Shown: positions 12,023 to 40,469 of the stretch, piece after piece
How the letters are laid out: every line of letters starts with the position of its first letter
Position numbering within the stretch: position 1 is the stretch's first letter
Source: an uncultured Verrucomicrobiae bacterium
Lineage (GTDB): Bacteria; Verrucomicrobiota; Verrucomicrobiia; Limisphaerales; UBA11358
DNA: 64,000 nucleotides
Assembly: GCA_963719075.1 (NCBI GenBank)
Contig: CAVRAN010000003.1
Location: 408,659 to 472,658, forward strand
Reading direction: 5' to 3'
Made by a program: the position numbers and the translations under genes
Notes under the pieces: generated by a model
Database searches by the model: none
The model's input: only the letters and a program-made list of their open reading frames with translations
What the model was told of the DNA's origin: nothing

Positions 12023-13684
12023 TTAATTAAAATTGCTTGACGAAGTGGGCTTAATAATCTGCTGGAGTTGCTGTTTTAGCTGGTCGAACGCTTCCTCTGC
12101 AGAATTTGGTCCGTATAAAGCAAACTCAATCTTCTTTCGCTCCAAACGGCGTTCGCCATAAAAGGCAGTCTGGAAGCGGTTCAAGCTATCCGCCCGTTCG
12201 GTTTGAACGGTGTGATTGGCATTGTGGCGATCCTGCCATAGGCATACGAAGACATAAGCGGTGTTACCATCTATTTCGAAAATGTATCGCAAAAACGAAA
12301 GGTCAATGCCATTGACCCGAATGGTCTTGCTTGGAAATTTCTGTACCAACTTCCAACCTGCATTAGAAAGACATATTTCAGGAAGATGCTCGGTGCTTTC
12401 GTATGTCTCCATATTATTCGGTTCCCACTGAAGGTATGCCCCGTGCCATACACTGCCGTTTTCATCAGTCCAACCGGCTCCGTCCGAGTGATCGCAGTGT
12501 AGAATGTCGAGCGATCTCGGAGCTATCGGTTCCTCCTGAAACGAAACAGCATTGGTTGGCCAGCAGAGGGTCCAAGCCGGATTCTTTATCAGGTTATGAT
12601 CTTGGTGTCGGTACCACGCCTCATTTAAGGCTTCTGAGGCCGGCACGAACAATCCCAGAACCACGAGCAACGGAAGCGGCAGTAATCGAATGGCGACATC
12701 CGGCATCACTGCCGGGTTTCGATGGTTCGCCAAATGAGATTCAATGCCATCCTTGGTCCGAAGCAGGGAGACCGATGGCCAAATAGTTCCCATGATAAAT
12801 ACCAACACCATCAGCCCCGCACAGTCATGCCAGGCATTCATCGTCCCGAAGCCAAACCGGGCGGCCATCCAAGTTAAAAATGACGTGCGTCCCACGTTTG
12901 CCACCAAAGCCAGCACGATCGCAAATACAACACCCCAAAGCCGCCGCCACGGACTGAGTAAATAACATTCGCCCAAGAACAGGCCGATCATGATCCCAAG
13001 ATGCATGGAGCGCACACCACTGCAAGCCTCGTCCACGCCCAACATCCCCGTACTGATCTGCAACGTTGCGCCATGCTGGATGGCGGGTATGCCTAGAAAC
13101 GCCACCACATCAACGGTCGCAGCGGCCACCACGCGCATCAGATGCGAAACGATAATGCCTTCAGGAACGCGCGGCCAAGGCACGGCCACGAGAAGAAAAG
13201 CCACCGGGAAAAAAAAGTGCCGCAGCCATGACTTTCCGCCACTCACCCACAAGGCAACGCAAGTTAGACCGGCAACCACAAAGGCATGAAGCCAAAACAT
13301 GGCCCGCCAACCGATGTTGGCTTCCGAGCTAATCCTAATGGGAAGGATCAAAACCACTAGGCCGAGCGCAACGCAGAGAACCAGCCGGTCACGCGAGGGA
13401 TTTGGCAATGGTGCGTTCGGCGCAGGCCGGATTTTCCAGCGCTGCCAGAATATCACCGCCGCCAGCAGAGGCACGAACCAGCCATAGGCATATTCAGGGT
13501 TGGAAGTCCAGTCATAGCGCAGTTGATTGAAAAGCTGGAGCCAGTACAGTACGATAACCGCCGGAAGCGCCCATTTGCCGATGGAATTTCTCGAATGAGA
13601 CATGAAAAATGGAGAATGGTGAATGGAGGATGGCATTAAAAAATCAGAGCCTGTTCGCTCTCTTCCCAGAAGCGTGCTTCGCAC
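12023..13684 (-). CDS. Exosortase (EpsH family) fused to an EpsI-like C-terminal domain
   Basis: Polytopic N-terminal domain with NPEYAYGWFVPLL and the catalytic-Cys motif VDEACSGVRSM. The C-terminal ~200 aa carry the EpsI-type HLPEICLSNAGWKL motif. The likely start is the ATG at 13603 (MSHSRNS..). Confidence 0.85.
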   Translation of the reverse strand: MRSTLLGRERTGSDFLMPSSIHHSPFFMSHSRNSIGKWALPAVIVLYWLQLFNQLRYDWTSNPEYAYGWFVPLLAAVIFWQRWKIRPAPNAPLPNPSRDRLVLCVALGLVVLILPIRISSEANIGWRAMFWLHAFVVAGLTCVALWVSGGKSWLRHFFFPVAFLLVAVPWPRVPEGIIVSHLMRVVAAATVDVVAFLGIPAIQHGATLQISTGMLGVDEACSGVRSMHLGIMIGLFLGECYLLSPWRRLWGVVFAIVLALVANVGRTSFLTWMAARFGFGTMNAWHDCAGLMVLVFIMGTIWPSVSLLRTKDGIESHLANHRNPAVMPDVAIRLLPLPLLVVLGLFVPASEALNEAWYRHQDHNLIKNPAWTLCWPTNAVSFQEEPIAPRSLDILHCDHSDGAGWTDENGSVWHGAYLQWEPNNMETYESTEHLPEICLSNAGWKLVQKFPSKTIRVNGIDLSFLRYIFEIDGNTAYVFVCLWQDRHNANHTVQTERADSLNRFQTAFYGERRLERKKIEFALYGPNSAEEAFDQLKQQLQQIIKPTSSSNFN

Positions 13685-13702
13685 TACTTCGATAGGCCAT
13701 TT

Positions 13703-13885
13703 TTAAAAAATCCCTCCTTCATGCAACTTCTTGTCTTTGATTGCAACTGACAGTTTTGGTTTCACTTTTTCTTGGGCCTTCTTAAATCCAATCAAACCCA
13801 ATATCGCGACCAAGGCACCAGATGGCAGCCACGGGGTTATTTTCACCAACTCCGGCAGAATACCACTTATCAATGCGAAGATCAA
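13703..13885 (-). CDS. Small hypothetical membrane protein upstream of the exosortase
   Basis: 60-aa ORF with a TTG start and a hydrophobic core (IFALISGILP..GALVAILGLIGF). It ends 18 nt before the longest exosortase ORF. Support is weak. Confidence 0.3.
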   Translation of the reverse strand: MIFALISGILPELVKITPWLPSGALVAILGLIGFKKAQEKVKPKLSVAIKDKKLHEGGIF

Positions 13886-13916
13886 CCCGCTAGACGAAGG
13901 GGTATTATATCAATTT

Positions 13917-13985
13917 GGTGGGGCGAGCGTTCCCGCGAGCCGGAATCCACTTGATTGTTCGGCTCGCGGGAACGCTCGCCCCACC
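13917..13985. repeat. Perfect 26-bp-stem palindrome (REP-like hairpin element)
   Basis: GGTGGGGCGAGCGTTCCCGCGAGCCG (13917-13942), a 17-nt loop, then CGGCTCGCGGGAACGCTCGCCCCACC (13960-13985). T13916/A13986 add a 27th pair. It lies in the divergent exosortase / PEP-CTERM intergenic region. Confidence 0.9.
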
Positions 13986-14381
13986 AGTTGCAATCAAAAT
14001 GATGCAATACTGACGAAGGTCAATGTGCCAACAACATTTACTCCAAAAAAATCGAAAAACTGCTTGCGATGAGATCATGACCCGGCCGGACTTTCGTGGG
14101 GACAATGGCTTGCGGCTTAAGTTCCGGCGGCAAATCCGAGGCATCTGTGTGCATCATCCTCTTTCAGGGTTTAAACGATTTCCTAGATGAAGTTTTGCAT
14201 GCCACTAAGTGGCAAAAGGTTGCGTTTGAAATCGGCGCTTCATCCGCATGTCTCAATCGTGTTATTAGTATGCCCGATTATGAACTATAATTTTAAAAAA
14301 ATTATTGACTGATTTCCATTTTCGAATAAGAATGTGTTAGATGGGGTTGAGGAAGGATGATTGGTGAAATAAAATTTAGAT

Positions 14382-15029
14382 ATGAAAAAAAATAATTTCA
14401 AAATCAGGTCGCGTTTTTTTAAAGCGGGTGTCGCGGCTCTGGCATTTGCCGGTGCCACGCAATTTGTTCAAGCGTCTGTCATACCCTATGACCCTGTCAA
14501 TTTGGCAACCCCGAATCCTGACAATTACTACTTTACCACTACGTCCACTGAAGTGACCTTATATGACGCACCCTCTTCTGCTGGAGACACGGATTTGTTA
14601 AGTGTGTCCATTAATGGTGGTACGCCGATTTCAACCGGCTTAAACAACCGCATGGCTGTCGGCAGTCCGTTTTCCTTCGCTGTAACACCCGGCGAAAAAC
14701 TGACATTTAGCATATTTAACACTTTTACAGGTTCAACCCTATATTCAAGTTCGTTGCTGAACAGCGACGGGTATAACCATGCGTATGCCCAAAATTATGT
14801 TGGTGGCTCGATTCCCAGTTTCGGTACCATTCCATCGGGCACATATGTTGGATTTGAAGATTTGAAACAAGGTCAGCAAACCGACTTTGACTATAATGAT
14901 TTAACATTTGTCGCTACGAATTTAAAACTCACAGTTGTTCCAGAAACCACGACGTTGGTCGGAGGAGCCTTGTTGTCGGGGATGGGGATGCTGGTGATGT
15001 TGCGCAATCGAAAAATGAAGTTGGGGTGA
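14382..15029 (+). CDS. PEP-CTERM sorting-domain protein with a DUF4114-like domain (exosortase substrate)
   Basis: Signal peptide (ALAFAGATQFVQA). The DUF4114-like motif is GFEDLKQGQQTDFDYNDLTFV. The C-terminus VVPETTTLVGGALLSGMGMLVMLRNRK is a VPEx motif plus TM plus basic tail. Confidence 0.85.
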   Translation: MKKNNFKIRSRFFKAGVAALAFAGATQFVQASVIPYDPVNLATPNPDNYYFTTTSTEVTLYDAPSSAGDTDLLSVSINGGTPISTGLNNRMAVGSPFSFAVTPGEKLTFSIFNTFTGSTLYSSSLLNSDGYNHAYAQNYVGGSIPSFGTIPSGTYVGFEDLKQGQQTDFDYNDLTFVATNLKLTVVPETTTLVGGALLSGMGMLVMLRNRKMKLG

Positions 15030-15070
15030 TAATCATTAGGATTGGATTTTTATATCGTATTTTAAGGATA

Positions 15071-15102
15071 AGGCCGGTTCACAAGACCGGCCTATTCTTT
15101 TT
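15071..15102 (+). terminator. Rho-independent terminator after the PEP-CTERM gene
   Basis: AGGCCGGT-TCACAAG-ACCGGCCT followed by ATTCTTTTT, 42 nt after the stop codon. Confidence 0.6.
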
Positions 15103-15307
15103 GATTGGAACATCAAGAGCGGAACGCAAAGTTCGCACCGATTCATGAAATGGCGGACTCTTTCATCACCGCTGTCTGGCAGCCCGCTGGACTGACGCTG
15201 GACTAACTCGGTCACTATAATTTCCGTAAGCGTCACGCCAAACACCTTTTTGACAGAGCAACTAAAGCGGCAGTTTCGTAAGTGTGAGAGATAATATGCT
15301 ATGACGT

Positions 15308-15427
15308 TTATGATGCGAGCCGTTGCACTGGCGGTTGCGTTTTGGTCCAGGTTTGGGGCGTGACTTCGGGGATTTGGTGATTGGTCATGTTGGGCAGGCG
15401 GGTGAGGACTTCACGAAGATATGACAC
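15308..15427 (-). pseudogene. IS66-family transposase C-terminal remnant
   Basis: Minus-strand translation VSYLREVLTRLPNMTNHQIPEVTPQTWTKTQPPVQRLASS* matches the conserved IS66 C-terminus (..YLRDVLxRLP...IxELLPxxW). It is preceded by an in-frame stop, and no transposase body is present. Confidence 0.45.
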
Positions 15428-15561
15428 TTATGACTTCACGGAATAGAGGTGCTTGGCGTGACGCTTACTAATTTCCTTGTAGCATCGGTGATGGGAATTG
15501 CAAAAGCGGGCGATCAAACCTTTGAAAAATCTGGGCCCCATCAAGAATAAACCGGAGAAGT

Positions 15562-15602
15562 CGGAAAATAACAACGGGCGGAAGAATGGTTCTTCCGCCC
15601 GT
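15562..15602 (-). terminator. Rho-independent terminator after the tyrosine-kinase gene
   Basis: 13-bp stem ACGGGCGGAAGAA / TTCTTCCGCCCGT (15574-15586 / 15590-15602). On the minus strand it is followed by TGTTATTTTCC. It lies 67 nt downstream of the stop at 15669. Confidence 0.55.
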
Positions 15603-15668
15603 GCTTTGAAATATAATTTACTGAAGTCGCCAGCACACATTTATGTCGCACGGCAACGCCACCGCAAA

Positions 15669-17834
15669 TCAAGTGGCGACTTTGGTGAGTTTGTCCTTGG
15701 ATTCCTTCCGGCCATAGTGCTCGTAACCGTAACCAAAGTAATAATAACCGCTCAAACTGCGTTTGGGCAACTGGTTCAATATGATGCCATCAAGCGGAGC
15801 GTTCGCGTTTTTTAGCAGTTGAACGCCGTGTTCGGCAATTCTACGCGAGGTTTTGCAGCCCTTCACCACCAGCACGACGGATTGAACTTTGCCGGCCAGC
15901 AGCAACGTATCACTCACGGCGAGAACCGGTGCGCTGTCAATGACGATGCGGTCGTAATGAGCCAGGCCATCATTGAGCAATTGTTGAAAATCCGACTGCG
16001 AGAGCAGTTCGGCCGGATTGGGCACCATGTTGCCGGCGGCTATCCACGACAAATTGGGAACATCTTTGTGCTGCCGACAAATCTCGTTTAATAAATTGCG
16101 TCCCAGAAAATAATCGGTGATGCCGGGCAAGGCGCTGTTTTCTCCGGAAAACAAACTTTCGATCATCGGACGGCGCAAATCCATATCCACCAGCAGGGTG
16201 CGCAGGCCTTGCTGGGCGAGACTGACGGCATAGTTGATGGACATGAATGTTTTTCCTTCTTCGGGCAACGCACTGGTAAAAAGGCAAATTTTCCGGTCGT
16301 TTTCAGGCCCCAGCAGCGAAAGGGTTGTTCGCAATGAGCGGAACACTTCCGCGCCAATGGAGGCAGAGTCCGCCGTTACCAGCAGTCGGCTACCTTTGCT
16401 ATCGGCTGAGGACAATTTGGGAATGGCGCCTAAAACGGGCAATGAAAGGTATTGCTCGGCTTCGTCCACGGTCTTAAATGAAGTGTCCAGTGAATAAAGG
16501 ACAAAACTGATCCCCAATCCAACGACCGATCCGCCGAAAAGGGCCAGCGCAAAAATCAAGATGATTTTTGGTGAAACGGGCTTTTCTGGAACCGTTGCCG
16601 GGTGGACGATTTGAATTCTTTCCGGTGCAAATTGTTCCCCGACCGTAGACTGGCCAAGCCGGCTAATGACGGAATTGTACAGGACGCTGTCGGATTGCAC
16701 ATCGGCGGCCAGCACATTGAAACGAACCGAGCTTTCGCTCAACTGCATGGTATTGGATTTGGCGTCATCCAGTTGTTTTTCCAACCCCTGTTCGGCCGTC
16801 CGGGCGGTTTCGTAGGCAATCCGCTGGCTTTCCTGAATTCGCGAACGGGTCTGCAGCACGGTATCGGCAAGTTGTTCTTTAAGACTGGCCAGCGCCGAAG
16901 CCGCGAGAATATATTTTGGGTTTTTTTCGCGATAGCGCTGGCAAATGACTGCAAAATTGTTTTCCTGAGTGGCCACGGCGGAGTTGATCTGCACCACGAT
17001 CGGGTCGGTGGCAATTTGTGTATAGGCCAGCAAATCGTCAATGTTGGTCCCCATTTTCAATGAATCCTGATAAGCGCCTTCAGCTTGAACAAGGTCGGCT
17101 TTGCTTTGCGTCAGCAGCTTGTTCAAATCCTGCAGTTGCGGTGTGATTATATCCTGATTCTGATCCAGGGAAACGGTGCCAGCCTGTTTGCGATAATCCT
17201 GCAACTTCTGCTCCGCTATTTCCAATTTCGCTTTCAACTGATCGGCTTCCTGTTGAAGGAAGGCATTCGCTCCGGCCGTGGTGGTTTGTTGTTCAAGCGC
17301 GTCCAGCCCCAAATAGTTTTCCACCAGCGAATTGGCCAGTTGCGCAGCCATCTGGGGATCGGTATTTTTAACCGCAATGTTTATCAAATGCGTATTGCGA
17401 ATCAACGTCACTTCGACATGTTTTGAAAACCACAAAATAATGTCATCGCGCGTGAATATTTTGGAACCAACCGTTACGCCGCCTTGCGACGGCAGCAAAT
17501 TATTGGCCACCAGCACCTTTTCCAACAAGCCACTGTCGGAGAATTTCTGGGCCACGGTATTTATAACGTCCACATCCTGCAAATTATCCGAGACCACATT
17601 TTCCACGGCAACTTTTGCATCCTGTTCTTCCACTTGAACGGTGGTGGTTGCCTCATACATGCGGGGTGCCAATACCACATAAACCGCCGCGAGAATTACC
17701 GTCAGAACGATGCACGAAACGATCAGCCAGCGTTTATCCAAAACCAGCCTCACCACGCCTTGCAAATCGGTGATCGAACCGGGCGGAGGCGGTTCCTGCG
17801 AAGGAGGCAAATCATGCGGGTCAATGTCTGGCAT
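15669..17834 (-). CDS. Polysaccharide co-polymerase / tyrosine autokinase (Wzc/GumC-type, PEP-CTERM-locus type)
   Basis: 721 aa. It has an N-terminal Wzz-like domain with two TM segments and long coiled coils. The C-terminal P-loop is LPEEGKTFMS, and the Tyr-rich tail is SGYYYFGYGYEHYG. Confidence 0.9.
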   Translation of the reverse strand: MPDIDPHDLPPSQEPPPPGSITDLQGVVRLVLDKRWLIVSCIVLTVILAAVYVVLAPRMYEATTTVQVEEQDAKVAVENVVSDNLQDVDVINTVAQKFSDSGLLEKVLVANNLLPSQGGVTVGSKIFTRDDIILWFSKHVEVTLIRNTHLINIAVKNTDPQMAAQLANSLVENYLGLDALEQQTTTAGANAFLQQEADQLKAKLEIAEQKLQDYRKQAGTVSLDQNQDIITPQLQDLNKLLTQSKADLVQAEGAYQDSLKMGTNIDDLLAYTQIATDPIVVQINSAVATQENNFAVICQRYREKNPKYILAASALASLKEQLADTVLQTRSRIQESQRIAYETARTAEQGLEKQLDDAKSNTMQLSESSVRFNVLAADVQSDSVLYNSVISRLGQSTVGEQFAPERIQIVHPATVPEKPVSPKIILIFALALFGGSVVGLGISFVLYSLDTSFKTVDEAEQYLSLPVLGAIPKLSSADSKGSRLLVTADSASIGAEVFRSLRTTLSLLGPENDRKICLFTSALPEEGKTFMSINYAVSLAQQGLRTLLVDMDLRRPMIESLFSGENSALPGITDYFLGRNLLNEICRQHKDVPNLSWIAAGNMVPNPAELLSQSDFQQLLNDGLAHYDRIVIDSAPVLAVSDTLLLAGKVQSVVLVVKGCKTSRRIAEHGVQLLKNANAPLDGIILNQLPKRSLSGYYYFGYGYEHYGRKESKDKLTKVAT

Positions 17835-17867
17835 ACAGGTTACAAGTTTAAATCGGTGTCCTGATTC

Positions 17868-18632
17868 TTAAAAAGTTCTCTGGCCGACCGTGATAATGTC
17901 GTCGGGCAAAATTTCAAACGGGGTTTTTGCCGGGTCTTTTTCCATTTCACCGGCGTTCAGGTGATAAACTTTTGGCTCGCCATTTACAACGCGGCGCACC
18001 GTTATTTTGGACGGCGCTCCCAGACGCGTATAACCGCCGGCCATCGCAATGGCCTCCAATAAATTGACGGATTCATTCTGCGGAAAATCAAAGCTCCCGG
18101 GATGCTGCACTTCACCCAGCACGGAAAACAGCCGGCTGGCAAATTGGTCCAGGGTAATATTGACCTGCGGATTGACCAGATAATCCTTGTTGTAGAGTTG
18201 CTGGATAAGCGTCGTGGCCTCGACAACGGTCAGGCCGCCGATTTTCACCTGCCCCAAAAGCGGCAATTGCACCATGCCGCTGCTGTCAATGGTGGTTTTG
18301 GTTTCCAAATCGTCTTCCTGATAAACCGTCATGTCAATCACGTCGTTGGGACATAACGTCCGCGCAGCCGTGGATTCGGAGCTGACAGCATCCGGCATTT
18401 GTGCCGACTGCACTAGATTATTGCCCGAAACGTTCGCCGCCGGTCCCGGGCCGGCAGCCGCTGGTTGGTTTGTGTCTGCGCACCCGGATACGATTAAACC
18501 TACTGAAACAAGCACGCCAAACAAACAGTTCCTTAAGATCATAATGACATTACCATCCTGGGAATGATTTATTACGAGTATGTGGCCGTTGACAAGTTCA
18601 AAATGGTTCTTGTTTGAGACGATGCCTGACAT
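17868..18632 (-). CDS. Polysaccharide export outer-membrane lipoprotein (Wza-like, Poly_export + SLBB)
   Basis: Lipobox LIVSGC. Other motifs are GDVIDMTVYQEDDL, SSGMVQLPLLGQVKIGGLT and LLEAIAMAGG. The probable start is the ATG at 18542 (MILRNCLF..). Confidence 0.85.
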   Translation of the reverse strand: MSGIVSNKNHFELVNGHILVINHSQDGNVIMILRNCLFGVLVSVGLIVSGCADTNQPAAAGPGPAANVSGNNLVQSAQMPDAVSSESTAARTLCPNDVIDMTVYQEDDLETKTTIDSSGMVQLPLLGQVKIGGLTVVEATTLIQQLYNKDYLVNPQVNITLDQFASRLFSVLGEVQHPGSFDFPQNESVNLLEAIAMAGGYTRLGAPSKITVRRVVNGEPKVYHLNAGEMEKDPAKTPFEILPDDIITVGQRTF

Positions 18633-18666
18633 TTTTGCAATATCCCGGAGGTAAATCGAAGAGGTT

Positions 18667-20298
18667 TTAATAAGCGTTTTGGTGGCTGAAAAACGTCATT
18701 AAAATGATGCGCAAATCGAGAATCAAGCTCCAGTTTTCCACATACCAGATGTCGAAACGGATGCGTTCCTCCAAGCTGGTGTTGCCGCGCCAGCCGTTGA
18801 CCTGCGCCCAGCCGCTTATTCCCGGACTGCAGGTGTGGCGGGCCTGATAATGCGGAACCTTGAATTTGAAACGCTCGATCAATTCGGGACGCTCCGGCCG
18901 CGGCCCGATCAGACTCATATCTCCTTTAAGCACATTCCAGAATTGGGGAATTTCATCAATATTCCATTTGCGCATAAATGCCCCGATCTTAAGCCGGCGC
19001 GGATCATTTTCCGTGGCCCAACACGCTTTACCATCGTTTTCCGCGTTCATTTGCATACTGCGAATCTTTAACATGTAAAACAACTTCCCATTAAGTCCCG
19101 ACCGCAACTGCCGGTAAAAAATCGGGCCGGGTGATTCCAGATAAACCAAAATCCCGAAAATCAGGATCAGCGGGCAGGCAACCAGCAATCCAATGCATGC
19201 GCCCACAATGTCCAACGTTCGTTTAATCAGGCGGTTTTCATATGCGTCCATGGGCAGGGAATCCACGCCCAGTACCGGAACTCCTCCCACAATGCTGGGG
19301 CGCAGGCCGGAAATCAAAATCTCGAAGTAATGTGGAACCATTTTAAATTGAACATGTTCCCTCTCACAGACTTTCGCCACATGCGCCGCCCCCTCGCTTT
19401 GCAAGGTCTCGGATTCGGTAAGCACGGCCACATCTACGGCATATTCCCGCAAGATGCCCTCCAGCTCGTGCAGGGAACCCAGCCGGCATTCCTGTAATTC
19501 ACCAAAACGGTTTGGCCTGTTGCCTTGGACCCAGCCGATCATTTCCAACTCAGGGTTTGTCTGAAGGGTCTTTTTAATCCGGAGCGTTTCAGGCCCCGCC
19601 CCGATTACGACCAGCCGCTTGCGCAATCGCAAAACCACAGCGGGATGCCGTAATATGCGGCTCAACAACAAACGCCAGATATAAAGGGCCAGAAAAATAA
19701 AAATCCAACTGCAAACGACAAATAACCTCGAAATGGGCGGATTCGTTTTGACAGCCAGGCTGACGCCGATGAATGCGAACAGACAAACGCTCAAAATGAC
19801 GGTGAATTTGGCCAGGTATTTATCAGGCGCAAGCAAATCTTTATATTCATAGGAACATTTGGTCAACAAGCCCCCAAGCACAGCCATCATGCCAAATAAA
19901 ATCAATTTCCAGTAATCGGTTATCACCGGTAAATACACGCCTAGACCGGAGTGTAAAGGGATGAGACCGCTTTGAAATCGCAGCCAGTAGGCAAGAACAA
20001 ACCCCAGCAGAATCATTAGCAGATCGCCCGCAACTGCCGACAGAGCTATAGTGCTTTCCCACTTTGCACGGTTATGGCGTATGGCTTGAGGCGCGTCTTG
20101 GCGTGCAAAATCCAGAGCATATGGAAAGGCTTTGAATTCCTTTCCCGTGATATCGCCAACATTTATCGAAATGTCGTTTTGCATCAGGTCGCGAATTCCG
20201 GATTGATGGCGCTGGTTTTCTTCACCTTTTTCTCCCTTTAATTTGGCAATGTCTTTTCGGAACTCGTTAAATGACTTGCTCAACCACACGCACCGCAA
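18667..20298 (-). CDS. Polyprenyl-phosphate glycosyl-1-phosphate transferase (WbaP/EpsB-type priming enzyme)
   Basis: 543 aa with N-terminal TM helices. The C-terminal bacterial sugar transferase domain carries IDEIPQFWNVLKGDMSLIGPRPERPE. Confidence 0.9.
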   Translation of the reverse strand: MRCVWLSKSFNEFRKDIAKLKGEKGEENQRHQSGIRDLMQNDISINVGDITGKEFKAFPYALDFARQDAPQAIRHNRAKWESTIALSAVAGDLLMILLGFVLAYWLRFQSGLIPLHSGLGVYLPVITDYWKLILFGMMAVLGGLLTKCSYEYKDLLAPDKYLAKFTVILSVCLFAFIGVSLAVKTNPPISRLFVVCSWIFIFLALYIWRLLLSRILRHPAVVLRLRKRLVVIGAGPETLRIKKTLQTNPELEMIGWVQGNRPNRFGELQECRLGSLHELEGILREYAVDVAVLTESETLQSEGAAHVAKVCEREHVQFKMVPHYFEILISGLRPSIVGGVPVLGVDSLPMDAYENRLIKRTLDIVGACIGLLVACPLILIFGILVYLESPGPIFYRQLRSGLNGKLFYMLKIRSMQMNAENDGKACWATENDPRRLKIGAFMRKWNIDEIPQFWNVLKGDMSLIGPRPERPELIERFKFKVPHYQARHTCSPGISGWAQVNGWRGNTSLEERIRFDIWYVENWSLILDLRIILMTFFSHQNAY

Positions 20299-20516
20299 TC
20301 ATATTTTATAATCCATGGACCTATAATCTATTGCATTGTAAGACATGTTTAATCACATTTGAGACAAGCACACCCATACAACCACTTTGAAGTTTGCGGG
20401 CTGGCGTTGCCTCGAATTGGTGGCGGGTTGGTCCGAATTTTAGAAAATGTTACGCAAAATAACTTTTCCCGATTCTGTGCCGTTCTTTTTTCAGAATAGA
20501 CCAGCTAACAACCTTA

Positions 20517-20864: not shown

Positions 20865-20870
20865 TAATTA

Positions 20871-21065
20871 TTAGTATTCCGAAAAATTTGAGACGCACAA
20901 AGGAGCTTTAAAATTATTACGACTTCCAACTATCGTCTGTTCTACCACACGGATTGCGTCCAGTTGAATGCGCTTTTTGGGTGAACGAACCAGGTTGGAA
21001 TAATACGGTTTAACCATTGGCGGCTGATATGCGACTCGCTGAGTTCTTTTCGTGACGTCGTCCAT
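20871..21065 (-). CDS. Hypothetical small protein
   Basis: 64-aa ORF ending 6 nt upstream of the 20517-20864 ORF. Coding status is uncertain. Confidence 0.25.
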   Translation of the reverse strand: MDDVTKRTQRVAYQPPMVKPYYSNLVRSPKKRIQLDAIRVVEQTIVGSRNNFKAPLCVSNFSEY

Positions 21066-21133
21066 AAACGATTATTGCCACAGAACAGCCCAAAAGAGAA
21101 ATCAAATTTCAGACCACACTACCGACCAATGAC

Positions 21134-31967: not shown

Positions 31968-32089
31968 CTAGTGAAATGCTCCGACAAATCCGGATCAAGC
32001 TGGTCACCCTCTACCCGTTGCCGAAGACTTGAATGAGTTTATACGACCGTGGTCGTTTAACAATTATTCTAATTTAAAATTAAAAGGCG

Positions 32090-33556: not shown

Positions 33557-33614
33557 AATTTACGTTCGTTTCCGTTATTTCGCTTTGGCGTCCTTCGCTA
33601 CGCGCTTGACGTGC

Positions 33615-34328
33615 TCAATCACCTTTTTGGGAAAGAGCCTTTTGATTGCGTGGTGCGTTTTTAACGCCATTGGATGTTTCTTTTTTTGTGCCATTAGTCA
33701 GTTTTTCGTAAGTGAGTTTTTCGGCTGACACCAATTTTATCATGGCATCCCGAAACGCCCACTCATTTTTCCGGTTGTTATACCGAAATTCCAGTTCATC
33801 AAGGTAGGAGTCAAGGTGTTTGACGCTGACCTTGTGATATGAGCCGATGATGGAGCGTTTGAGTAAGCTCCATATATTTTCGACTGTGTTTGTGTGAACC
33901 TTGCCATTCACCCATTGTTCCGCGCTATGGTTCACAGTTTCATGCCTTGTATCGGCATCGCCGATGCCGCGATAGGCTGGCCATTCATCCGTGTAAATCG
34001 CTTCCGTATCTGGCGCGGTGTTTGTGTGGATGAATCTGTGCAAATTCTTGCGGCTGGCACTGTTAATCGTCTGCAATCGCAACGAACCTTCGCGCTCGAC
34101 CGCGCCGACGACAATGACTTTATTCTTCTTGTAGCCGCGTCCCCGATTTCTGGCTTTTCCGCCTATCCATGTTTCATCCACTTCGACCGTGCCGCGCAAT
34201 GGCAACGGGTTTTGTTCCCGCAATGCCGCCCTGACACGGTGACAGAGATACCATGCTGTCTTGTAGGAAACAGCTAGCGTGCGTTTAAGCTGGTTTGCCG
34301 ACACGCCTTTCTTGGCTTCCAGCATCAT
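33615..34328 (-). pseudogene. IS1595-family (ISXO2-like) transposase, 5'-truncated
   Basis: The DDE core is KTAWYLCHRVR..VEVDETWIGGK..IYTDEWPAYRGI..NTVENIWSLLKR. The N-terminal zinc-ribbon domain is missing, and the ORF begins 46 nt from the SDR stop codon. Confidence 0.8.
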
Positions 34329-34374
34329 GGATCAAAGTAAGTGTCGAGGAAATCACTGTCATTGAGGTTCATTA

Positions 34375-35109
34375 TCAAACCGGATCATGCAATCGTCCGC
34401 CAATACCGCCGTCAATATGCAGACATGCGCCGGTGATAAAGGCGGCGTCTTCCGACGCCAAAAATATGGCGGTCTTGGCCACTTCCCAAGGTTGGGCGAT
34501 TCGTTCCAAGGGATGGTTTTTTGCCAGTTCATCAAATTCCTTCGATTTTCCTTCAAATCCCGCAAGCAACATCGGGGTGGCAGTGGCGGCAGGATTGATT
34601 ACATTAACGCGTACGCGCGGGCCAAGATCAACAGCTAGTGCCCGGGTCATGCCAACCAGAGCCGCCTTGCTGGTGGCGTAACAAATAAATCCGGGTTTGG
34701 TGGCCACCGAATGAATACTGGCGATATTGACCACCGAGCCTTTTGCTTTCTCCAAATCCGGCAACAGACTTTGGGTCAGTAAAAACGGAGCCACAAGATT
34801 CGTCTGTAAGGTGTCGTCCCAGTCGGAAATTTTAACATCATCGGTTTTGTTGAGAATTTGGGTAGCGGCGTTATTAACCAACGTCCTCAATCCATGGTGG
34901 CCGATGATTGTGCGCACTTCCGCCGTAAGTTTGTCCCGCATTTCGGCGTTCAGGTAGAGGTCACGGATGTTAATTTGTAAAAAGGCATTGCAAGAGCAAT
35001 TCCCCGCCCGTTTGTCCGTGCCGATAACGAAGTAGCCTGCTTTTTGGAATTCCGCGCAGAGGGCTTGTCCGATGCCTCCCAACGCGCCGGTAATGAGGGC
35101 CGTTTTCAT
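34375..35109 (-). CDS. SDR-family NAD(P)-dependent oxidoreductase
   Basis: Motifs are TGALGGIG, NNAA and the catalytic YATSKAAL. There is a 4-nt overlap with the upstream dehydrogenase. Confidence 0.9.
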   Translation of the reverse strand: MKTALITGALGGIGQALCAEFQKAGYFVIGTDKRAGNCSCNAFLQINIRDLYLNAEMRDKLTAEVRTIIGHHGLRTLVNNAATQILNKTDDVKISDWDDTLQTNLVAPFLLTQSLLPDLEKAKGSVVNIASIHSVATKPGFICYATSKAALVGMTRALAVDLGPRVRVNVINPAATATPMLLAGFEGKSKEFDELAKNHPLERIAQPWEVAKTAIFLASEDAAFITGACLHIDGGIGGRLHDPV

Positions 35110-36050
35110 TTGATGTCAAGGAACTGGAACAAAATATCAATGGCGCGGTCACTCGTACGAATAACGGCGTCGAGTGTATTGGAACCATTGTGTGAGCCAA
35201 AGATGCAACGATCAAATTTGCGCAATGCCGAATCAACAGGCAATGGTTCGGACTCAAACACATCCAATGCCGCGCTATGAACATGGCCGCTTTCCAGGGA
35301 AGCGACCAAAGCTGATTCATCAATCAATGGTCCGCGCGCCACGTTGACGATACGAACGCCAGCCTTTGCAGCGGCCAAAGTCTGGTTATTTAGCATGTGC
35401 CGGTTTTCTTTGGTGAGGGCACAGGTAAAAACAATGAAATCACATTCGCCAATGTGGTCTGGCCATTGAGCCGGCAATACCGATTCCAACCCTTCCATCG
35501 GCTTGAAAAATGGATCGTAAGCAATGACTTTCATTTCCGCAGCGAACAATCTTTTCGCCGTTTGCCTTCCTATGTCACCGAAACCAACAAGTCCAGCCGT
35601 ACGCCCGGCAAGGGAAATACCGACGGGTTTGGGCCATTGCCCGCTCCGAACCCCACGATCTATTAAAAATGTCTGACGCGCGAGTGCGGTAACGTAGCCC
35701 ATGGCAACGTCGGCGACTTCCCTGCCAAACGCTGCAGGGGTATTGGCGATGGGAATGCCAAGGTCTTTACAGGCGACAAAATCCACGTTGTCAACGCCCA
35801 CGCCCCATTTGGCAGCGGCGCGCAACCGTCCGGCTTTTCCAGCGGCAAAGACGCGGCGTGTCGCGGGGTCGTCGCCGATAATCCAGCCGTCAAATCCAGG
35901 AAGAAGAGAGACCAATTCATCTTCAGTCAACGTTTGCACTACATTCGGAGTAACAACCTCAACACGTTTATCCAAAAAACGCGAACGGCAGTTGTCTATT
36001 GACCGCAACATCGGCGGACAAGTCACTAAAATTCGAACGGCGGAATTCAT
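35106..36050 (-). CDS. D-isomer-specific 2-hydroxyacid dehydrogenase (PGDH-like)
   Basis: Motifs are GLVGFGDIGRQ and NVARGPLIDESALVASLESGHVHSAALDVFESEPLP. There is a 4-nt overlap with the upstream cytidylyltransferase. Confidence 0.9.
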   Translation of the reverse strand: MNSAVRILVTCPPMLRSIDNCRSRFLDKRVEVVTPNVVQTLTEDELVSLLPGFDGWIIGDDPATRRVFAAGKAGRLRAAAKWGVGVDNVDFVACKDLGIPIANTPAAFGREVADVAMGYVTALARQTFLIDRGVRSGQWPKPVGISLAGRTAGLVGFGDIGRQTAKRLFAAEMKVIAYDPFFKPMEGLESVLPAQWPDHIGECDFIVFTCALTKENRHMLNNQTLAAAKAGVRIVNVARGPLIDESALVASLESGHVHSAALDVFESEPLPVDSALRKFDRCIFGSHNGSNTLDAVIRTSDRAIDILFQFLDIK

Positions 36051-36745
36051 TTGGATGATCCCTTTCGCGACAGTCCGGCAGCCATGATTTCAGCGATGTC
36101 CCAGCCTTCCTGATCGTCAATGTCGGCGGATTCAACGCGAGGCGTTTCAAACATCATTGGTTTGGCGCCAATGCGCGCCGACGTCGCTGCAAAGCTTTGG
36201 CGATTGAACAGGTAGAGATTGGAATTTTCTTCAAACCACGGTTCCAAGTCCTGGGTGCGGACCAATTTTTTGGGGTCATGGTTCACGGGCGAGCCGTCGG
36301 CGCGGTAAAAACGGGTTTGAAATTTATTGACGGCAAAGAGGCTGTCAGCCATTCCTTTCGCAACGGCTTCACGATGGGCGGCCAGCGCGCGCCGGATGGT
36401 ATCGGCGCTTAACAAAGGATTGGTGGTATGCGTCATCAAATAGGTTTCACTGGCTATGGCGGCAATATCGTCGGCCAGCACCAGGTTCATGCTCACAAAG
36501 TCACCGCAAATTTCCGGTTTGCGGTCGCGAATCAAAATCCGTCCGCTGTCCGTCAGTCCGTTGGCGGCAAGGATATCGCGCGCGTCGGTGTTGATGATAA
36601 TTTTTTGAATTTCATCCACGTTCAACAACGTATTGAGAATCCAACGAAAGAGCGGCTTGCCGGCGAAATCACGGAAGTTTTTTCCCGAAACCCGCGCGCT
36701 ATGCGCTTTCATCGGTAAAAGGGCAACATATTGATAGTCAGTCAT
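36047..36745 (-). CDS. Acylneuraminate/KDO-type cytidylyltransferase family protein (CTP_transf_3)
   Basis: LLPMKAHSARVSGKNFRDFAGKPLFRW..IIINTD fits the NeuA/KdsB/PseF family N-terminus. The substrate is unknown. Confidence 0.75.
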   Translation of the reverse strand: MTDYQYVALLPMKAHSARVSGKNFRDFAGKPLFRWILNTLLNVDEIQKIIINTDARDILAANGLTDSGRILIRDRKPEICGDFVSMNLVLADDIAAIASETYLMTHTTNPLLSADTIRRALAAHREAVAKGMADSLFAVNKFQTRFYRADGSPVNHDPKKLVRTQDLEPWFEENSNLYLFNRQSFAATSARIGAKPMMFETPRVESADIDDQEGWDIAEIMAAGLSRKGSSK

Positions 36746-36846
36746 TTTTTAGTTTGCCTCTTGATGCTTTCAAACGATTGTCCAAGATAGAGTCCATCAT
36801 GGAATGTTATGTGGCCAGACTAATAACCATCGCAGATGCTGGCACA

Positions 36847-37656
36847 TTACTTTTGTGCTGTTAATACATAATTCCGCCCACAGATCAAAAAGCGCAAGGC
36901 AAATGGCGGCGCAAGTTTTTTGTGGAGATACTTGACTTCCCCGGGAAACGTACTGTTTGGACCGAACAAATCCCAATGTGTCGGCACTAGGACATCCGCC
37001 CCCGTCCGTTCGGCCATCATAAACGCTTCGCGAATGCTCATATTGCCTACGATGCCGGCTTCATTCCGGAAATAGTTGCGTTCATTGACTGGAAGGAACG
37101 CATAGTCAATCGCCACGCCGGCAAGTGCCAAGAAAATTTCCGAATGGGGAATGGTATCTCCGGCATGGTAGATGGTGCAATCAGGCCATTCCATGAGATA
37201 ACCCATGAAACGCAATTCGCCGGCGGAGTTGCGTTCCAAAATCGTGTGCGCTGCGGGAATGGCACGAATACGCAACGTCCCGATAGTCGTCTCCTTTTCC
37301 GAGGCGCGGATGATTTTAGCCTTTGGAATACCGCATTCGAGGAGAATGGAATCCACTTCGTAGGGACATATAAAGCGAACGGCTGGCGAGGCTGCGGCAA
37401 TCATTCGGACGCTCTTCGGATCAGTATGGTCTAGGTGCGCGTGAGTCAGCAAAACGTGGCTGATACCGGAAAGCCCATGTGCTTGAACCGCCGCCGGGTA
37501 AAGCCGTTTCATATGACTCCCGAACTGATCAGCCACAGCATCCGTCAAATAAGGGTCTATCGCCACACGGTCTCCATCGTGTTCAAACAGATAACCCGTT
37601 TGCCCGAGCGAACAAACGTTTAGGAAATTCTGTTTATTAGGATGGTTTTTAGGCAT
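36847..37656 (-). CDS. MBL-fold metallo-hydrolase
   Basis: HVLLTHAHLDHTD (HxHxDH) plus downstream His/Asp ligands. Confidence 0.8.
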   Translation of the reverse strand: MPKNHPNKQNFLNVCSLGQTGYLFEHDGDRVAIDPYLTDAVADQFGSHMKRLYPAAVQAHGLSGISHVLLTHAHLDHTDPKSVRMIAAASPAVRFICPYEVDSILLECGIPKAKIIRASEKETTIGTLRIRAIPAAHTILERNSAGELRFMGYLMEWPDCTIYHAGDTIPHSEIFLALAGVAIDYAFLPVNERNYFRNEAGIVGNMSIREAFMMAERTGADVLVPTHWDLFGPNSTFPGEVKYLHKKLAPPFALRFLICGRNYVLTAQK

Positions 37657-37706
37657 CGGGTGGAGTGCAAAGCGTGGAGTGAAGTAAACCGCAAGACCGT
37701 GTTACC

Positions 37707-39005
37707 TTAAAAGCCCAACGTAAATTGAACACCGGCCTGATTGTCTGTCACGTTGCCGCCGGTTGGTCTTTGATCATAATACCATTGGTAAAAAATCTGG
37801 CCGACAAGGTATTTGCCAAGTTTCGCCTGGAAGCCAAGGCGGGCGTTCCAATAGTCATCCGTATATTTCGCAAGTCCGGTGGCGGTGGTGTCAGGGGTGT
37901 AATCAACGTTGTAGTAGCCCACATTGAAGGTGGCCATAAAGCGGTCCGTGATACCTTGGTTCACACCGAGTCTGGCTCCGGTGCTAGTGTAATAGTAGCC
38001 GCTGTAAATGGAGGCATATTGCTGCCGGGAGCCGGTCAGGTTCATTGTCGTGCGTTCCGCAAGCTGGTACTGGCCGGTAACGGTGAACACGGTGGAAATG
38101 GTGTCGGGGTTGCCATCTTCATATTGAATCCATTCCGCGCCGACGGAAGCATCGAAGGTGAGTTTTTCAGTGTAATTATAGCGCAAGCGCGCGAGGAGCT
38201 GTTCAAACGTCTGGTCCTGACCCCCGGTGACCACATCCAAACCGCCGATCACACCCACACTAGCATGCAGGTTCTCTTCAATTTCATAATTAAACCAGTC
38301 CTTGGTATTGTATTCGGTGTAACCGGTCAGACCCGGCTGGTCATAGCCGACGCTGTATCGCTGGAAATCGCTTTCCAGAGAGGTACGTTCCCCCAATTGA
38401 TACGCGAGGGAAATCGTGGTGGTGATGGTTTGGATTCCGGTGCGCTGGCCGGCCTCAACCAGGGTAGTTTTCTGATCTTCATAATCCTGCCTCAATCCGA
38501 AAATGAACTTGCTTATCGGCCAGAGCAGATTGAGTGTGCCGAACTGGTCTATGGAATTATTGCTAGAATAATGGTCAAAGAATTGAAAGCGCGGGCCGTA
38601 GTCCAGGATGAACAATTTCCCCGGCCAGTCTTCGGGCGGTTGAATAATGAGAGCGTCGGGTGAAAGGGAGAGGACATCAACATGGGCGTCGCGATAGGTA
38701 ACTAAGGCGGCATCGTCCCCGGCGACAGCCTGCACGGCGGGCTGAACGGTCCATATTTCATCGGCCTCGGTGTTCATGGAGGAAAACAATATGTTATCGT
38801 CGTAAGTCATGCCGGCGGTAACCCGCGGATGCAAATCAAATGGTCCCAGCCGAAAGTCCAGAGGCTTTTTTTGGTCGGTTGATTCAGTCGTGGTATCGTC
38901 TGACGCTGCCGCAGTTGAATCATTTTGCGCGACTGCGTTGGCACTCGACTTTAAAAACACACACGCCACCGCGAGGCTAATCCAGTTTCGAAAGATGCAA
39001 TACAT
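37707..39005 (-). CDS. Outer-membrane beta-barrel protein (EpsL-like, first gene of the EPS array)
   Basis: It has a signal peptide, alternating beta-strand pattern with aromatic girdles, and a C-terminal ..VQFTLGF with terminal Phe. Confidence 0.6.
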   Translation of the reverse strand: MYCIFRNWISLAVACVFLKSSANAVAQNDSTAAASDDTTTESTDQKKPLDFRLGPFDLHPRVTAGMTYDDNILFSSMNTEADEIWTVQPAVQAVAGDDAALVTYRDAHVDVLSLSPDALIIQPPEDWPGKLFILDYGPRFQFFDHYSSNNSIDQFGTLNLLWPISKFIFGLRQDYEDQKTTLVEAGQRTGIQTITTTISLAYQLGERTSLESDFQRYSVGYDQPGLTGYTEYNTKDWFNYEIEENLHASVGVIGGLDVVTGGQDQTFEQLLARLRYNYTEKLTFDASVGAEWIQYEDGNPDTISTVFTVTGQYQLAERTTMNLTGSRQQYASIYSGYYYTSTGARLGVNQGITDRFMATFNVGYYNVDYTPDTTATGLAKYTDDYWNARLGFQAKLGKYLVGQIFYQWYYDQRPTGGNVTDNQAGVQFTLGF

Positions 39006-39237
39006 TTGGCCTTGGTTTTGGAATCGTCCGTCAGCAATTACACCGTATTTTCAATAACTCCTTCAAAATTTTTATATCACGCCGAATTTGTGTGTCTATT
39101 AAATAAAAAAAATAAAAAGCCCGTTTCATCATCGAACATTTTTAATTACGACCGGCCACGCACATCCGTTTATTTTCACACTTCGTGCCCGTCAGTTCGC
39201 AGATGCTTTTTGCTCTCGCATTTGCCAACCGAGTTTT

Positions 39238-39612
39238 TCAGCTCCCCGGGTTGCCATAAAAGTTGACCTCGTTGCCGCTGTTCCCCAAACAGTCCATAAA
39301 GTCCACAAAGAGCGCCCGGAAAGAAAACGGGCATATTAAATCATCGTGCAAAAAATACCGGTCTGTGGAGACATCCTGGTCGAGGGCATTGAGTTGATGA
39401 TCCAGCAGGAACAAGCCCGCCTGGTGGTGTTGACACCAATGCCATAGTCGGTTGCCGTCAGATGTGTTGTTACAGCGTAGATGCCGCTTTCGGAAAATCC
39501 TATGTCGAAGTCGTTTGAAACCGGCCAGAGCCACGCCTATGCGAAGGATTCTTGCAATTGATAATTTTATAAATTTGATAGGCTTTGGTTTTGTTTGAAA
39601 AGTTTTTGGCAT
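39238..39612 (-). CDS. Hypothetical protein
   Basis: 124-aa ORF that overlaps the upstream 71-aa ORF by 46 nt in another frame. The two may be one frameshifted gene. Confidence 0.25.
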   Translation of the reverse strand: MPKTFQTKPKPIKFIKLSIARILRIGVALAGFKRLRHRIFRKRHLRCNNTSDGNRLWHWCQHHQAGLFLLDHQLNALDQDVSTDRYFLHDDLICPFSFRALFVDFMDCLGNSGNEVNFYGNPGS

Positions 39613-39782
39613 CTACCGTCCTGATTCTCCTTCATTTCTTCCATTGCAATAACTAAATCAAAAAGCTCGTCTTGTGTCATTACAATTTTAGGCCAATGGT
39701 ATTCATATTTCGGACGCGAGGTGATCGTGAACAGGGGAACGGTCTTGACAACAGCGAAAGCCTTCTTCCACATTAAAATCAA
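39567..39782 (-). CDS. Hypothetical protein
   Basis: 71-aa ORF with no family recognised. Confidence 0.2.
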   Translation of the reverse strand: MILMWKKAFAVVKTVPLFTITSRPKYEYHWPKIVMTQDELFDLVIAMEEMKENQDGRCQKLFKQNQSLSNL

Positions 39783-39791
39783 TTTATTTTC

Positions 39792-40469
39792 ATGACCCTC
39801 AAAACCGAACTATTTTACAAACTTCCACAAAATGTCATCGCCATCTTCACCGGTCGCAATCTCTTATGGCACGCGCTGGCCATTGTCCTGACGATCATGA
39901 GTGTCATGTCAGGCTTCGACTGGTTTTATTATCGTTCGACGCGGGTAGAGGCGTTGCTTCAACTTGCCCGCCCGGCCATTATGTTCGGAGCCATACTTCC
40001 GGCTTTGGCAACTTTTGTCATTTTGATAATTGGCGAGGTTAGAAAAAACCGCCGCATCATCACGACTGCGTGGGCTTTGGGACAGACGGCCATTCTCAGC
40101 TATGTTGTATCCTGCGGCTACAAGGCATTCACCGGACGCACCGGGCCGCCATTTAGAGGCTTCAGAATGCCTGACGCCACTTCACTGGCTGACCCCAGCC
40201 ATGGCTTCCATTTCGGTTTCATCAAAGGGGGCGTCTTCTGGGGCTGGCCCTCGTCGCACACCACCGTTACGTTTGCCATGACGGCCTGCCTGATCACCCT
40301 CTATCCCAAAAACAAGACGCTTGTTTTCATCGCGTTGTTTTATGCGCTCTATATCGGCTTCGGCGTCTCGGTGACCATCCATTGGTTCTCCGACTTTGTG
40401 GCCGGAGCCATCATCGGCAGTATGAACGGGACAGTAATAGGAAGAAGTTTTAGAATGAAACTGGCTTGA
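39792..40469 (+). CDS. PAP2-family phosphatase (possible undecaprenyl-diphosphate phosphatase)
   Basis: The three PAP2 motifs are present: YKAFTGRTGPP, WPSSHT and SVTIHWFSDFVAG. There are multiple TM helices. Confidence 0.8.
   Translation: MTLKTELFYKLPQNVIAIFTGRNLLWHALAIVLTIMSVMSGFDWFYYRSTRVEALLQLARPAIMFGAILPALATFVILIIGEVRKNRRIITTAWALGQTAILSYVVSCGYKAFTGRTGPPFRGFRMPDATSLADPSHGFHFGFIKGGVFWGWPSSHTTVTFAMTACLITLYPKNKTLVFIALFYALYIGFGVSVTIHWFSDFVAGAIIGSMNGTVIGRSFRMKLA

Follow-up and report, generated by a model that had tools for sequence, protein, structure and literature searches.

Within the window analysed here, a 64-kb stretch of contig CAVRAN010000003.1 from an uncultured Verrucomicrobiae bacterium of soil or peat, lies a 41.2-kb integrative island (1892..43087) whose cargo includes an exosortase gene, the gene of a candidate exosortase substrate and a one-direction array of exopolysaccharide (EPS) genes. 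The cargo amounts to about 39 kb on a small chassis, and about 30 kb of it forms one self-contained surface module. The single tRNA gene of the window, as found by ARAGORN and Rfam, is tRNA-Leu(CAA) at 43065..43151 on the minus strand; the Rfam scan of the window returned nothing beyond it. The 3' end of this gene overlaps the proximal attachment (att) copy at 43063-43087, and its last 23 nt plus 2 nt are repeated at 1892..1916 as the distal att. The two copies form a direct repeat, GATGGTGCCGACGGAGGGGGTCGAA, that is perfect over 25 of 25 positions and is the sole such pair in the window at up to 3 mismatches (chance expectation 0). Directly inside the tRNA-proximal copy is the gene of a full-length tyrosine integrase of 457 aa (41628..43001, minus strand; PF00589 34.6 against a cutoff of 27.1), which bears out the intact att sites next to an integrase described in an earlier reading of this DNA made from the sequence alone (the sequence-only reading). 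A small protein of 79 aa with an excisionase-type helix-turn-helix (HTH) domain, HTH_17, is encoded nearby on the same strand (40722..40961; PF12728 42.2 against a cutoff of 27).

Five copies of the decamer TGTAACAACA are present in the window, where 0.06 are expected. Two tandem copies at 2051..2071 (+) and two more at 43011..43031 (+) sit just inside the att copies, and the fifth is at 39465; the layout is as expected for integrase arm-type sites, and the pairs are candidates for the distal and the integrase-proximal site, respectively. The island is taken as 1892..43087 on the strength of the att repeats, the integrase, the paired decamers and the HTH_17 gene. That an island carries the surface genes had been proposed in the sequence-only reading and holds, but the extent given there (12.0-40.5 kb) was too small, as further cargo lies within the borders.

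For comparison, 80 loci from GTDB genomes were fetched by means of the flanking hisF gene. The closest belong to Verrucomicrobiota metagenome-assembled genomes of the subdivision 3 / Pedosphaera / Limisphaerales type, whose HisF proteins share 85-96% identity. In one of them (L003), positions 4354-5156 align with window 1-803 and, after a 17-nt spacer, positions 5174-6133 align with window 43065-44025; in a second (L008), window 1-803 is likewise joined to tRNA-Leu. As this left flank directly meets the tRNA gene in both, each represents an empty site. Island proteins have no relatives in the 80 hisF loci, save for weak matches (25-52% identity) of four generic-domain proteins. A tRNA-integrated island is characterized by a duplicated tRNA 3' end at its far border, by an integrase next to the tRNA and by relatives in which the site is unoccupied; all three are found here, and they support the placement of the locus inside a genuine integrase- and att-bounded insertion.

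The exosortase, encoded at 12023..13684 on the minus strand, is fused to an EpsI-like C-terminal domain. Its identity is given by PF09721 (141.6 bits against a cutoff of 25.7) and by the TIGR04178 signature at residues 217-307 (50.7 against 23); the true start is likely Met28, giving a protein of 526 aa. Against the named subfamilies (XrtA, XrtB, XrtC, XrtD, XrtN, XrtO, XrtT, XrtV and XrtW) it scores below the curated cutoff in every case, with XrtA at 102 against 208, XrtD at 93 against 400, XrtW at 65 against 425, XrtV at 61 against 313 and the rest lower, and it falls just under the cutoff of the general TIGR02602 model (100.1 against 105.55). Homologs are 500-630 aa long and come from Verrucomicrobiota and a few Acidobacteria; the best one outside its own population is 42% identical, while P0001, from the same population, is 100% identical. 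Cys221 (in an ACSGxRS motif), Arg266 (NxxR) and His286 do not vary across the 24 homologs aligned. Their presumed counterparts in ArtA are Cys173, Arg214 and Arg253 (PMC9263693). The EpsI-like label is based on transitive homology through three family members: the C-terminal domain matches residues 323-532 of P0064 (BLASTP 4e-34 over 212 aa), the region that holds the PF11984 match of that protein, and PF11984 is matched over almost its whole length by P0054 and P0065 (34.3 and 33.1 against a cutoff of 26.1). Fusions of EpsH with EpsI have been described previously (Haft et al. 2006, PMC1569441).

Transcribed divergently from the exosortase gene is that of the candidate substrate (14382..15029, plus strand), a 215-aa protein with a signal peptide, a DUF4114 domain (PF13448 29.8 bits) and a C-terminal tail, VVPETTTLVGGALLSGMGMLVMLRNRKMKLG, in which VPET is followed by a transmembrane (TM) helix and RNRKMK. 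In an alignment with the canonical VPEP tails of DUF4114 homologs, Pro187 is invariant, Glu188 is nearly invariant and the third position, Pro in most homologs, is Thr. The tails of two homologs, P0123 and P0126, are detected by TIGR02595 (25 and 26.3 against a cutoff of 16), and the tail of the island protein would best be called a degenerate PEP-CTERM signal. P0123 is found in an EPS locus (L119) together with two other PEP-CTERM proteins, which supports a functional link between this DUF4114 substrate family and EPS loci. A motif scan of the 64-kb window gave no further convincing PEP-CTERM tail. A 63-aa open reading frame (ORF) at 11783-11974 (+), convergent with the exosortase gene, ends in LPEP, a hydrophobic stretch and RLRCRCKLRR, without a model match; this doubtful ORF may be what is left of a PEP-CTERM tail or may resemble one by chance.

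The EPS array runs in one direction on the minus strand, from 39005 down to 15669. Its first gene encodes a 432-aa outer-membrane beta-barrel (37707..39005; TIGR03016 E 6.4e-9, sub-cutoff; PF10082 22.5 bits; C-terminal Phe), followed by a sugar-precursor module (34375..37656) of a metallo-beta-lactamase (MBL)-fold hydrolase, a CTP_transf_3 cytidylyltransferase, a D-2-hydroxyacid dehydrogenase and a short-chain dehydrogenase/reductase (SDR). Next come a Wzx-like flippase (32090..33556; NF041503 E 1.6e-28 over 380 residues, 99.9 against a cutoff of 300; polytopic, no Pfam match), an Acyl_transf_3 O-acyltransferase (30828-31967; PF01757 108.4 bits), a DUF115/MptE-like protein (30078-30824; PF01973 E 0.0018, a weak match) and a Wzy-like repeat-unit polymerase with about 10 hydrophobic segments (28710..30047; TIGR04370 E 1.4e-8, 34.2 against a cutoff of 40; no Pfam match). 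Three glycosyltransferases are present: a GT4 enzyme at 27478..28620 (Glycos_transf_1 52.5 bits), a weakly matched GT1/GT4-like enzyme at 24927..26108 (PF13692 30.8 bits) and a second GT4 enzyme at 21134..22438 (Glyco_trans_4_4 and Glycos_transf_1). Between the last two is the gene of a secreted right-handed beta-helix protein, GH141-like and with an N-terminal hydrophobic segment (22805..24901; PF13229 54.8, PF21231 48.9), a candidate polymer-modifying or trimming enzyme.

The distal part of the array encodes the priming enzyme, a polyprenyl glycosylphosphotransferase of the WcaJ/WbaP family (18667..20298; TIGR03025 385.5 against 295.6; PF02397 220.7 bits), a short Wza-like outer-membrane polysaccharide export (OPX) protein (17868..18632) and a Wzc-type polysaccharide co-polymerase / tyrosine autokinase with Wzz, GNVR and AAA_31 matches and a Tyr-rich C-terminus (15669..17834; TIGR01007 149.6 against 108). 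The OPX protein has 254 aa, Poly_export and SLBB domains only (PF02563 68.8 against a cutoff of 28), EpsE/EpsY-like matches and no outer-membrane-spanning domain. These three components of a Wzx/Wzy-dependent pathway all score above model cutoffs. A PAP2-family phosphatase (39792..40469; PF01569 46.9 bits) is encoded on the plus strand beside the array. All ORFs named in the sequence-only reading are present where it placed them and most carry the identity it gave. Three other ORFs (41125-41442, 40508-40876 and 39238-39612) were rejected as probable non-genes, on account of odd composition and no significant family match at the thresholds applied.

The cytidylyltransferase is NeuA/PseF-like, and it occurs with the D-2-hydroxyacid dehydrogenase, SDR, MBL and DUF115/MptE-like genes and no nonulosonic-acid synthase gene; this combination suggests a CMP-activated (cytidine monophosphate-activated) sugar acid in the polymer. 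The barrel and the short OPX protein may together form a composite OPX/beta-barrel translocon, as suggested by the short length of the OPX protein, its match to the EpsY model and the separate barrel gene in the array.

Two insertion sequences (IS) lie within the array. A complete IS5-family element (26266..27422, plus strand) is bordered by terminal inverted repeats that match perfectly over 15 nt and by a duplicated 5-bp target, CACTT, and its 316-aa transposase (26320-27270, +) matches annotated IS5 transposases at E 4e-51. The element is antisense to the array and sits in the gap between two glycosyltransferase genes, so that no coding sequence is broken by it; the stretch that contains it (26260-28620) has a GC of 0.573. 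The second is an IS1595-family transposase (33615..34328, minus strand), 5'-truncated and lacking its N-terminal zinc-ribbon region (NF033547 191.9 bits from profile position 15; DDE domain, PF12762, complete), between the SDR and Wzx genes; terminal inverted repeats were sought around it and none were found. It was observed to lie exactly at the junction of the sugar-precursor genes (GC about 0.52) and the low-GC Wzx/Wzy/glycosyltransferase genes. The array content listed in the sequence-only reading was correct, but both insertion sequences had been missed, and of its three to four glycosyltransferases three remain, as the fourth was probably ORF 26260..27396 (378 aa, without a significant family match), which is the antisense frame of the IS5 element and was rejected as a probable non-gene.

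Over its whole length the integrase can be aligned with many metagenome homologs, at about 82-87% identity. Its likeness to characterised families is weak: Xer models score best (45 bits), and PF00589 is matched only in part. Among metagenome contigs, a scan identified a related integrase (70-95% identity) in 30 loci. The tRNA-Leu(CAA) gene lies directly upstream of the integrase gene in 18 of the 21 loci scanned for tRNA genes, paired TGTAACAACA decamers occur in 19 of the 30, and the 79-aa HTH_17 protein is conserved in 12, the six best at 84-92% amino acid identity. Wherever cargo could be identified among the 30 loci it differs (a primase, an IstB-like protein, a restriction subunit), and none of them holds EPS or exosortase genes. 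One locus, L087, is a complete sister island on a 54.9-kb contig, with att copies at 3715 and 11228 and 7.5 kb between them. At its distal end, 200 bp share 85% identity with window 1894-2093, arm repeats included, and a homolog of the left-flank gene of the window comes right after its distal end. Its cargo of about 6 kb is unrelated: at 6509-10945 it encodes part of a type I restriction R-subunit, followed in the list of matches by an IS1-like gene and an AAA/DUF4143 protein.

The island is therefore one member of a family of integrative elements in subdivision-3 / Pedosphaera-like Verrucomicrobiota that are specific for tRNA-Leu(CAA) and keep a common chassis while their cargo differs. The chassis comprises the tyrosine integrase, the 79-aa HTH protein, about 200 bp at the far end and the paired decamers, and in the window it covers roughly 40.7-43.09 kb together with 1894-2093. 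Sister elements were seen to carry a Toprim/DUF3987 primase (L105, 3830-6262) or HTH_36 and IstB-like genes (L108, 2659-4436), and no relic of these primase or IstB modules is present in the window. The varied cargo of L105, L108 and L087 indicates that the chassis resembles a satellite-like or mobilisable family of peat and soil Verrucomicrobiota. A viral contig collection held no relative of the integrase and no copy of the hairpin motif described below; the chassis is thus not a recognised prophage. In a related genome, a 35%-identical integrase (L061, 12677-14142) adjoins tRNA-Arg(CCT), and distant integrase relatives accordingly use other tRNA targets.

Exosortase systems are usually described as resident and tied to chromosomal EPS loci, and their chemistry has largely been deduced from sortases and archaeosortases. 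The sequence-only reading gave the same general picture, and the homologs of the island exosortase fit it. Six homologous neighbourhoods were compared (L083, L085, the P0009 contig, L116, L117 and L118), five of them with DNA, and all six are polysaccharide loci. In L117 a barrel, a short OPX protein and a 716-aa Wzc-like protein are encoded directly upstream of the exosortase, and in L083 and L085 a secreted protein with a C-terminal tail of VPxxx and a helix is encoded immediately downstream. Among the five loci with DNA there is no tRNA gene within 10 kb and, by tblastn, no relative of the island integrase; the Pfam listings of the six contain no integrase families, and L116 is flanked by housekeeping genes. 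Since none of these loci lies in a recognisable island, the setting of the exosortase at 12023..13684 is exceptional. Tetratricopeptide repeat (TPR) proteins are adjacent in three of the six and absent from the island. Exact-sequence look-ups returned no record for the exosortase, the LLM-class monooxygenase encoded next to it (with two start codons tried) or the PAP2 phosphatase, and for Wzc only two short contigs of the same population.

In relation to known systems, the locus resembles the PEP-CTERM/exosortase (EpsH) systems of Haft et al. 2006 (PMC1569441) in having the exosortase within an EPS locus, an EpsI-like fusion and a secreted protein with a tripartite-type C-terminal signal, and its Wzc-, OPX-, priming-transferase- and barrel-like proteins resemble XrtA-associated families from the same work. 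It differs from those systems in that all XrtA-system models are sub-cutoff, no named Xrt subfamily applies, VPET replaces PEP, only one substrate is nearby, PrsK/PrsR/PrsT are missing and the locus is bounded by an integrase. No match to a histidine kinase, a sigma-54 activator or a TPR was found in 1892..43087 (with Pfam only for the left-cargo ORFs), so the absence of PrsK/PrsR regulators and a TPR lipoprotein noted in the sequence-only reading is borne out by profile scans; it is unremarkable, as Verrucomicrobium spinosum is also listed without PrsK/PrsR/PrsT (Haft et al. 2006, Table 1, PMC1569441).

With P4-like integrase islands the element shares integration at and duplication of a tRNA 3' end, an integrase beside the tRNA, a small excisionase-type HTH protein and host-variable cargo; unlike them, its integrase is only weakly similar and it has no replication or mobilisation module, though sisters have the Toprim/DUF3987 primase or IstB-like genes. 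Flexible islands classically contain EPS and O-antigen clusters, and in Alteromonas macleodii the flexible genomic islands fGI5/fGI6 (PMC3542563) likewise hold a strain-variable Wzx/Wzy cluster with divergent Wzx, Wzy and glycosyltransferase genes, lower GC and IS elements. Those clusters are replaced through homologous recombination in conserved flanks, whereas here the cluster lies within a site-specific integrative element. The 254-aa OPX protein and the separate barrel gene in the array recall the composite D1D2-OPX / beta-barrel translocon EpsY/EpsX of Myxococcus xanthus (PMC9601211), but the barrel call in the island is weak (PF10082, as given above) and the OPX and barrel genes are 19 kb apart. 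Each of these parts is familiar, and their occurrence together on an island is uncommon; a literature search on exosortases with genomic islands, integrases or horizontal transfer found no integrase-bounded exosortase island.

From these gene identities a working model of the module can be put together. The WcaJ/WbaP-family transferase would prime undecaprenyl phosphate, and the three GT4-type transferases, perhaps with the DUF115-like protein, would assemble the repeat unit. The DUF115-like protein may take a CMP-activated sugar acid made by the products of the cytidylyltransferase, 2-hydroxyacid dehydrogenase, SDR and MBL genes, and the repeat unit would be acylated by the Acyl_transf_3 enzyme. 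Wzx would then flip it and Wzy polymerise it under the control of the Wzc tyrosine kinase, and the polymer would leave through the short periplasmic OPX protein and the separate beta-barrel, as in EpsY/EpsX of M. xanthus. In parallel, the DUF4114 protein would be exported by Sec and anchored in the inner membrane by its C-terminal helix; the exosortase-EpsI protein, which presumably pairs with this neighbour, would cut it at VPET by means of Cys221, Arg266 and His286 and, by analogy with sortases and archaeosortases, hand it to an acceptor in the envelope or the polymer.

The reading preferred here, that 1892..43087 is a 41.2-kb integrative island of the tRNA-Leu(CAA) family with a self-contained exosortase/EPS surface module, is given a probability of roughly 0.7. 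Its borders hold, the Cys/Arg/His residues of the exosortase are kept and the locus is not syntenic in relatives. Several points weigh against it. At the left border, the conserved flank stops at about 805, and the interval from there to the distal att is taken up by a gene for a GH26 glycoside hydrolase (813-1841); this gene is not accounted for by a simple insertion and is missing from L003, L008 and L087. An origin of this gene in a tandem island was considered and found unsupported, given that there is no degenerate third att copy in the window at up to 3 mismatches and that alignment around position 805 gave no convincing tRNA remnant and no degenerate att. As for the surface module, the assignments of Wzx, Wzy, the barrel and the DUF115 protein are putative, drawn from matches that are significant yet sub-cutoff; polytopic hydrophobicity profiles additionally back the first two. 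The C-terminal 224 residues of the exosortase have no direct match to an EpsI model (PF11984 / TIGR02914, E up to 1-10), so the EpsI-like domain proposed in the sequence-only reading stands by way of the homologs and not by a model match of its own. Its PEP-CTERM substrate likewise stands in part: the divergent gene, the signal peptide and the tripartite-type tail are there, but the motif is VPET and no PEP-CTERM model matches it (TIGR02595 / PF07589; NCBIfam E up to 10, Pfam E up to 1). Exosortases had also not yet been analysed experimentally as of a 2018 review (PMC6098224).

Further points concern the expression and movement of the cargo. The array is interrupted by the IS5 element and the IS1595 remnant, which may keep downstream genes from being transcribed, and the cargo is compositionally mosaic. 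Pfam and NCBIfam scans of island ORFs revealed no genes for a relaxase, type IV secretion, conjugation, mobilisation, replication or phage functions, leaving the island without transfer, mobilisation or replication genes of its own, and the collections searched hold no second copy of the exosortase/EPS cargo. The proposal of the sequence-only reading that the sorting and EPS package is movable as a unit is consequently weakened by the missing second copy, the missing transfer genes and the mosaic cargo, while its position inside the island stands; that the exosortase/EPS cargo moves as one unit is plausible.

The history of the cargo is where the first alternative arises. The 29-nt sequence TGGAGCGCAGCCGGATGAGGCGAGCAATA at 41515-41543 (-) is the tip of a long hairpin (fold z-score -4.1) between the 3' end of the integrase gene and a conserved non-coding backbone stretch, and it is also found downstream of the integrase gene in L087, L088, L097 and L112. 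A perfect inverted copy, in which the stem is absent, lies at 11642-11670 (+) between the LLM and exosortase genes, so that the two copies flank the exosortase/EPS block almost exactly. The second copy was considered as a relic of another integrase or backbone and rejected, there being no integrase-like coding remnant and no hairpin. The repeat could be a recombination scar of block capture, and on this basis the island may have formed in two steps, with a small L087-like chassis first and the 30-kb block entering later, through a recombination event of its own, as an accidental passenger rather than as evolved cargo. Such accretion is possible, if on the unlikely side. It would agree with the perfect repeat that brackets the block, one copy of which is the conserved backbone hairpin, with the IS elements inside the block and with base composition: the block has a GC of 0.487 (internal range 0.42-0.57) against 0.523 in the right flank, block and flank correlate at 0.84 in tetranucleotide use (0.97 for the two flank halves as a control), and in GC and tetranucleotide use the block is unlike both the left cargo and the flanks. 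The shared stretch, however, is just 29-36 nt, the repeat is inverted rather than direct, backbone order past it is the same as in L087 and no donor locus was found. Accretion would be compatible with the integrative-island reading, as the block would still lie within the att sites. A stronger version, in which the repeat marks a site of cassette capture or exchange and the 30-kb unit of exosortase, substrate and EPS genes was swapped in as a portable whole, is highly speculative.

A second alternative accepts the island and denies it any present consequence: an old integration, no longer transferred between cells, would leave the locus effectively resident. The lack of conjugation, mobilisation, replication and phage genes, the split LysR gene and truncated IS1595 transposase, and an integrase without a relative in the viral contig collection would all suit such a fixed remnant. 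The recombination apparatus tells another story, as no mismatch separates the att repeats (25/25), the integrase keeps its full length and its collinearity with many homologs at about 82-87% identity, the HTH_17 gene and the arm repeats at both ends are intact, and the perfect-ended IS5 element points to recent activity in the region. The remnant is accordingly regarded as a tentative possibility, less probable than its negation, and the integrative island may still be able to excise.

The scope of the exosortase gives rise to a third alternative, in which the enzyme serves many chromosomal PEP-CTERM proteins and the island brings or replaces the main sorter of the genome. Verrucomicrobia can have dozens of such proteins (65 in V. 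spinosum, PMC1569441), and the models that the island exosortase comes closest to are XrtA and general EpsH; in the 64-kb window, however, there is no other convincing PEP-CTERM tail, and L083 and L085, with a tagged protein immediately downstream, show the pattern of a dedicated pair. A general role is thus considered unlikely. Least tenable is an ancestral EPS/exosortase locus, vertically inherited beside tRNA-Leu and deleted in L003, L008 and L087, which is disfavoured as highly improbable: polysaccharide loci are often lost and the compared relatives are just 77-90% identical in flanking DNA, but the extra DNA (save the 1.1 kb with the GH26 gene) is bounded by the duplicated tRNA 3' end and the arm repeats, L087 has the same ends with different and far smaller cargo, a close relative of any island gene occurs in 0 of the 80 hisF loci, and the best exosortase homolog outside the population is just 42% identical.

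As an integrative island, the locus illustrates that a whole package of exosortase-EpsI, one substrate, a Wzx/Wzy pathway and an OPX/barrel exporter can sit within a site-specific element. It offers a concrete case of a route by which diverse surface coats could spread in uncultured peat and soil Verrucomicrobiota, and the compact block of about 30 kb is clonable for testing exosortase processing with a single defined substrate. The advance is incremental, as it is well established both that polysaccharide loci occur on islands and that exosortases occur in EPS loci.

The remainder of the cargo lies to the left of the exosortase (2273..11458) and was annotated with Pfam and NCBIfam as an unknown 385-aa protein, an MlaD/PqiA pair, a DUF6600 protein, HipB/HipA, a split LysR and the LLM-class monooxygenase; its GC of 0.535 is flank-like. 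HipB/HipA is a toxin-antitoxin pair at 7221-8803, and the LysR-type regulator occupies two ORFs (9105-9939) and is a probable pseudogene. Outside the island, a DUF2971 gene (44026-44914; GC 0.371) lies between hisF and a DMT_6 gene. These two genes abut in L003, and L004 and L008 have 2.5-2.7 kb of other DNA there; the 44026-44914 stretch looks like a second small variable spot across the tRNA.

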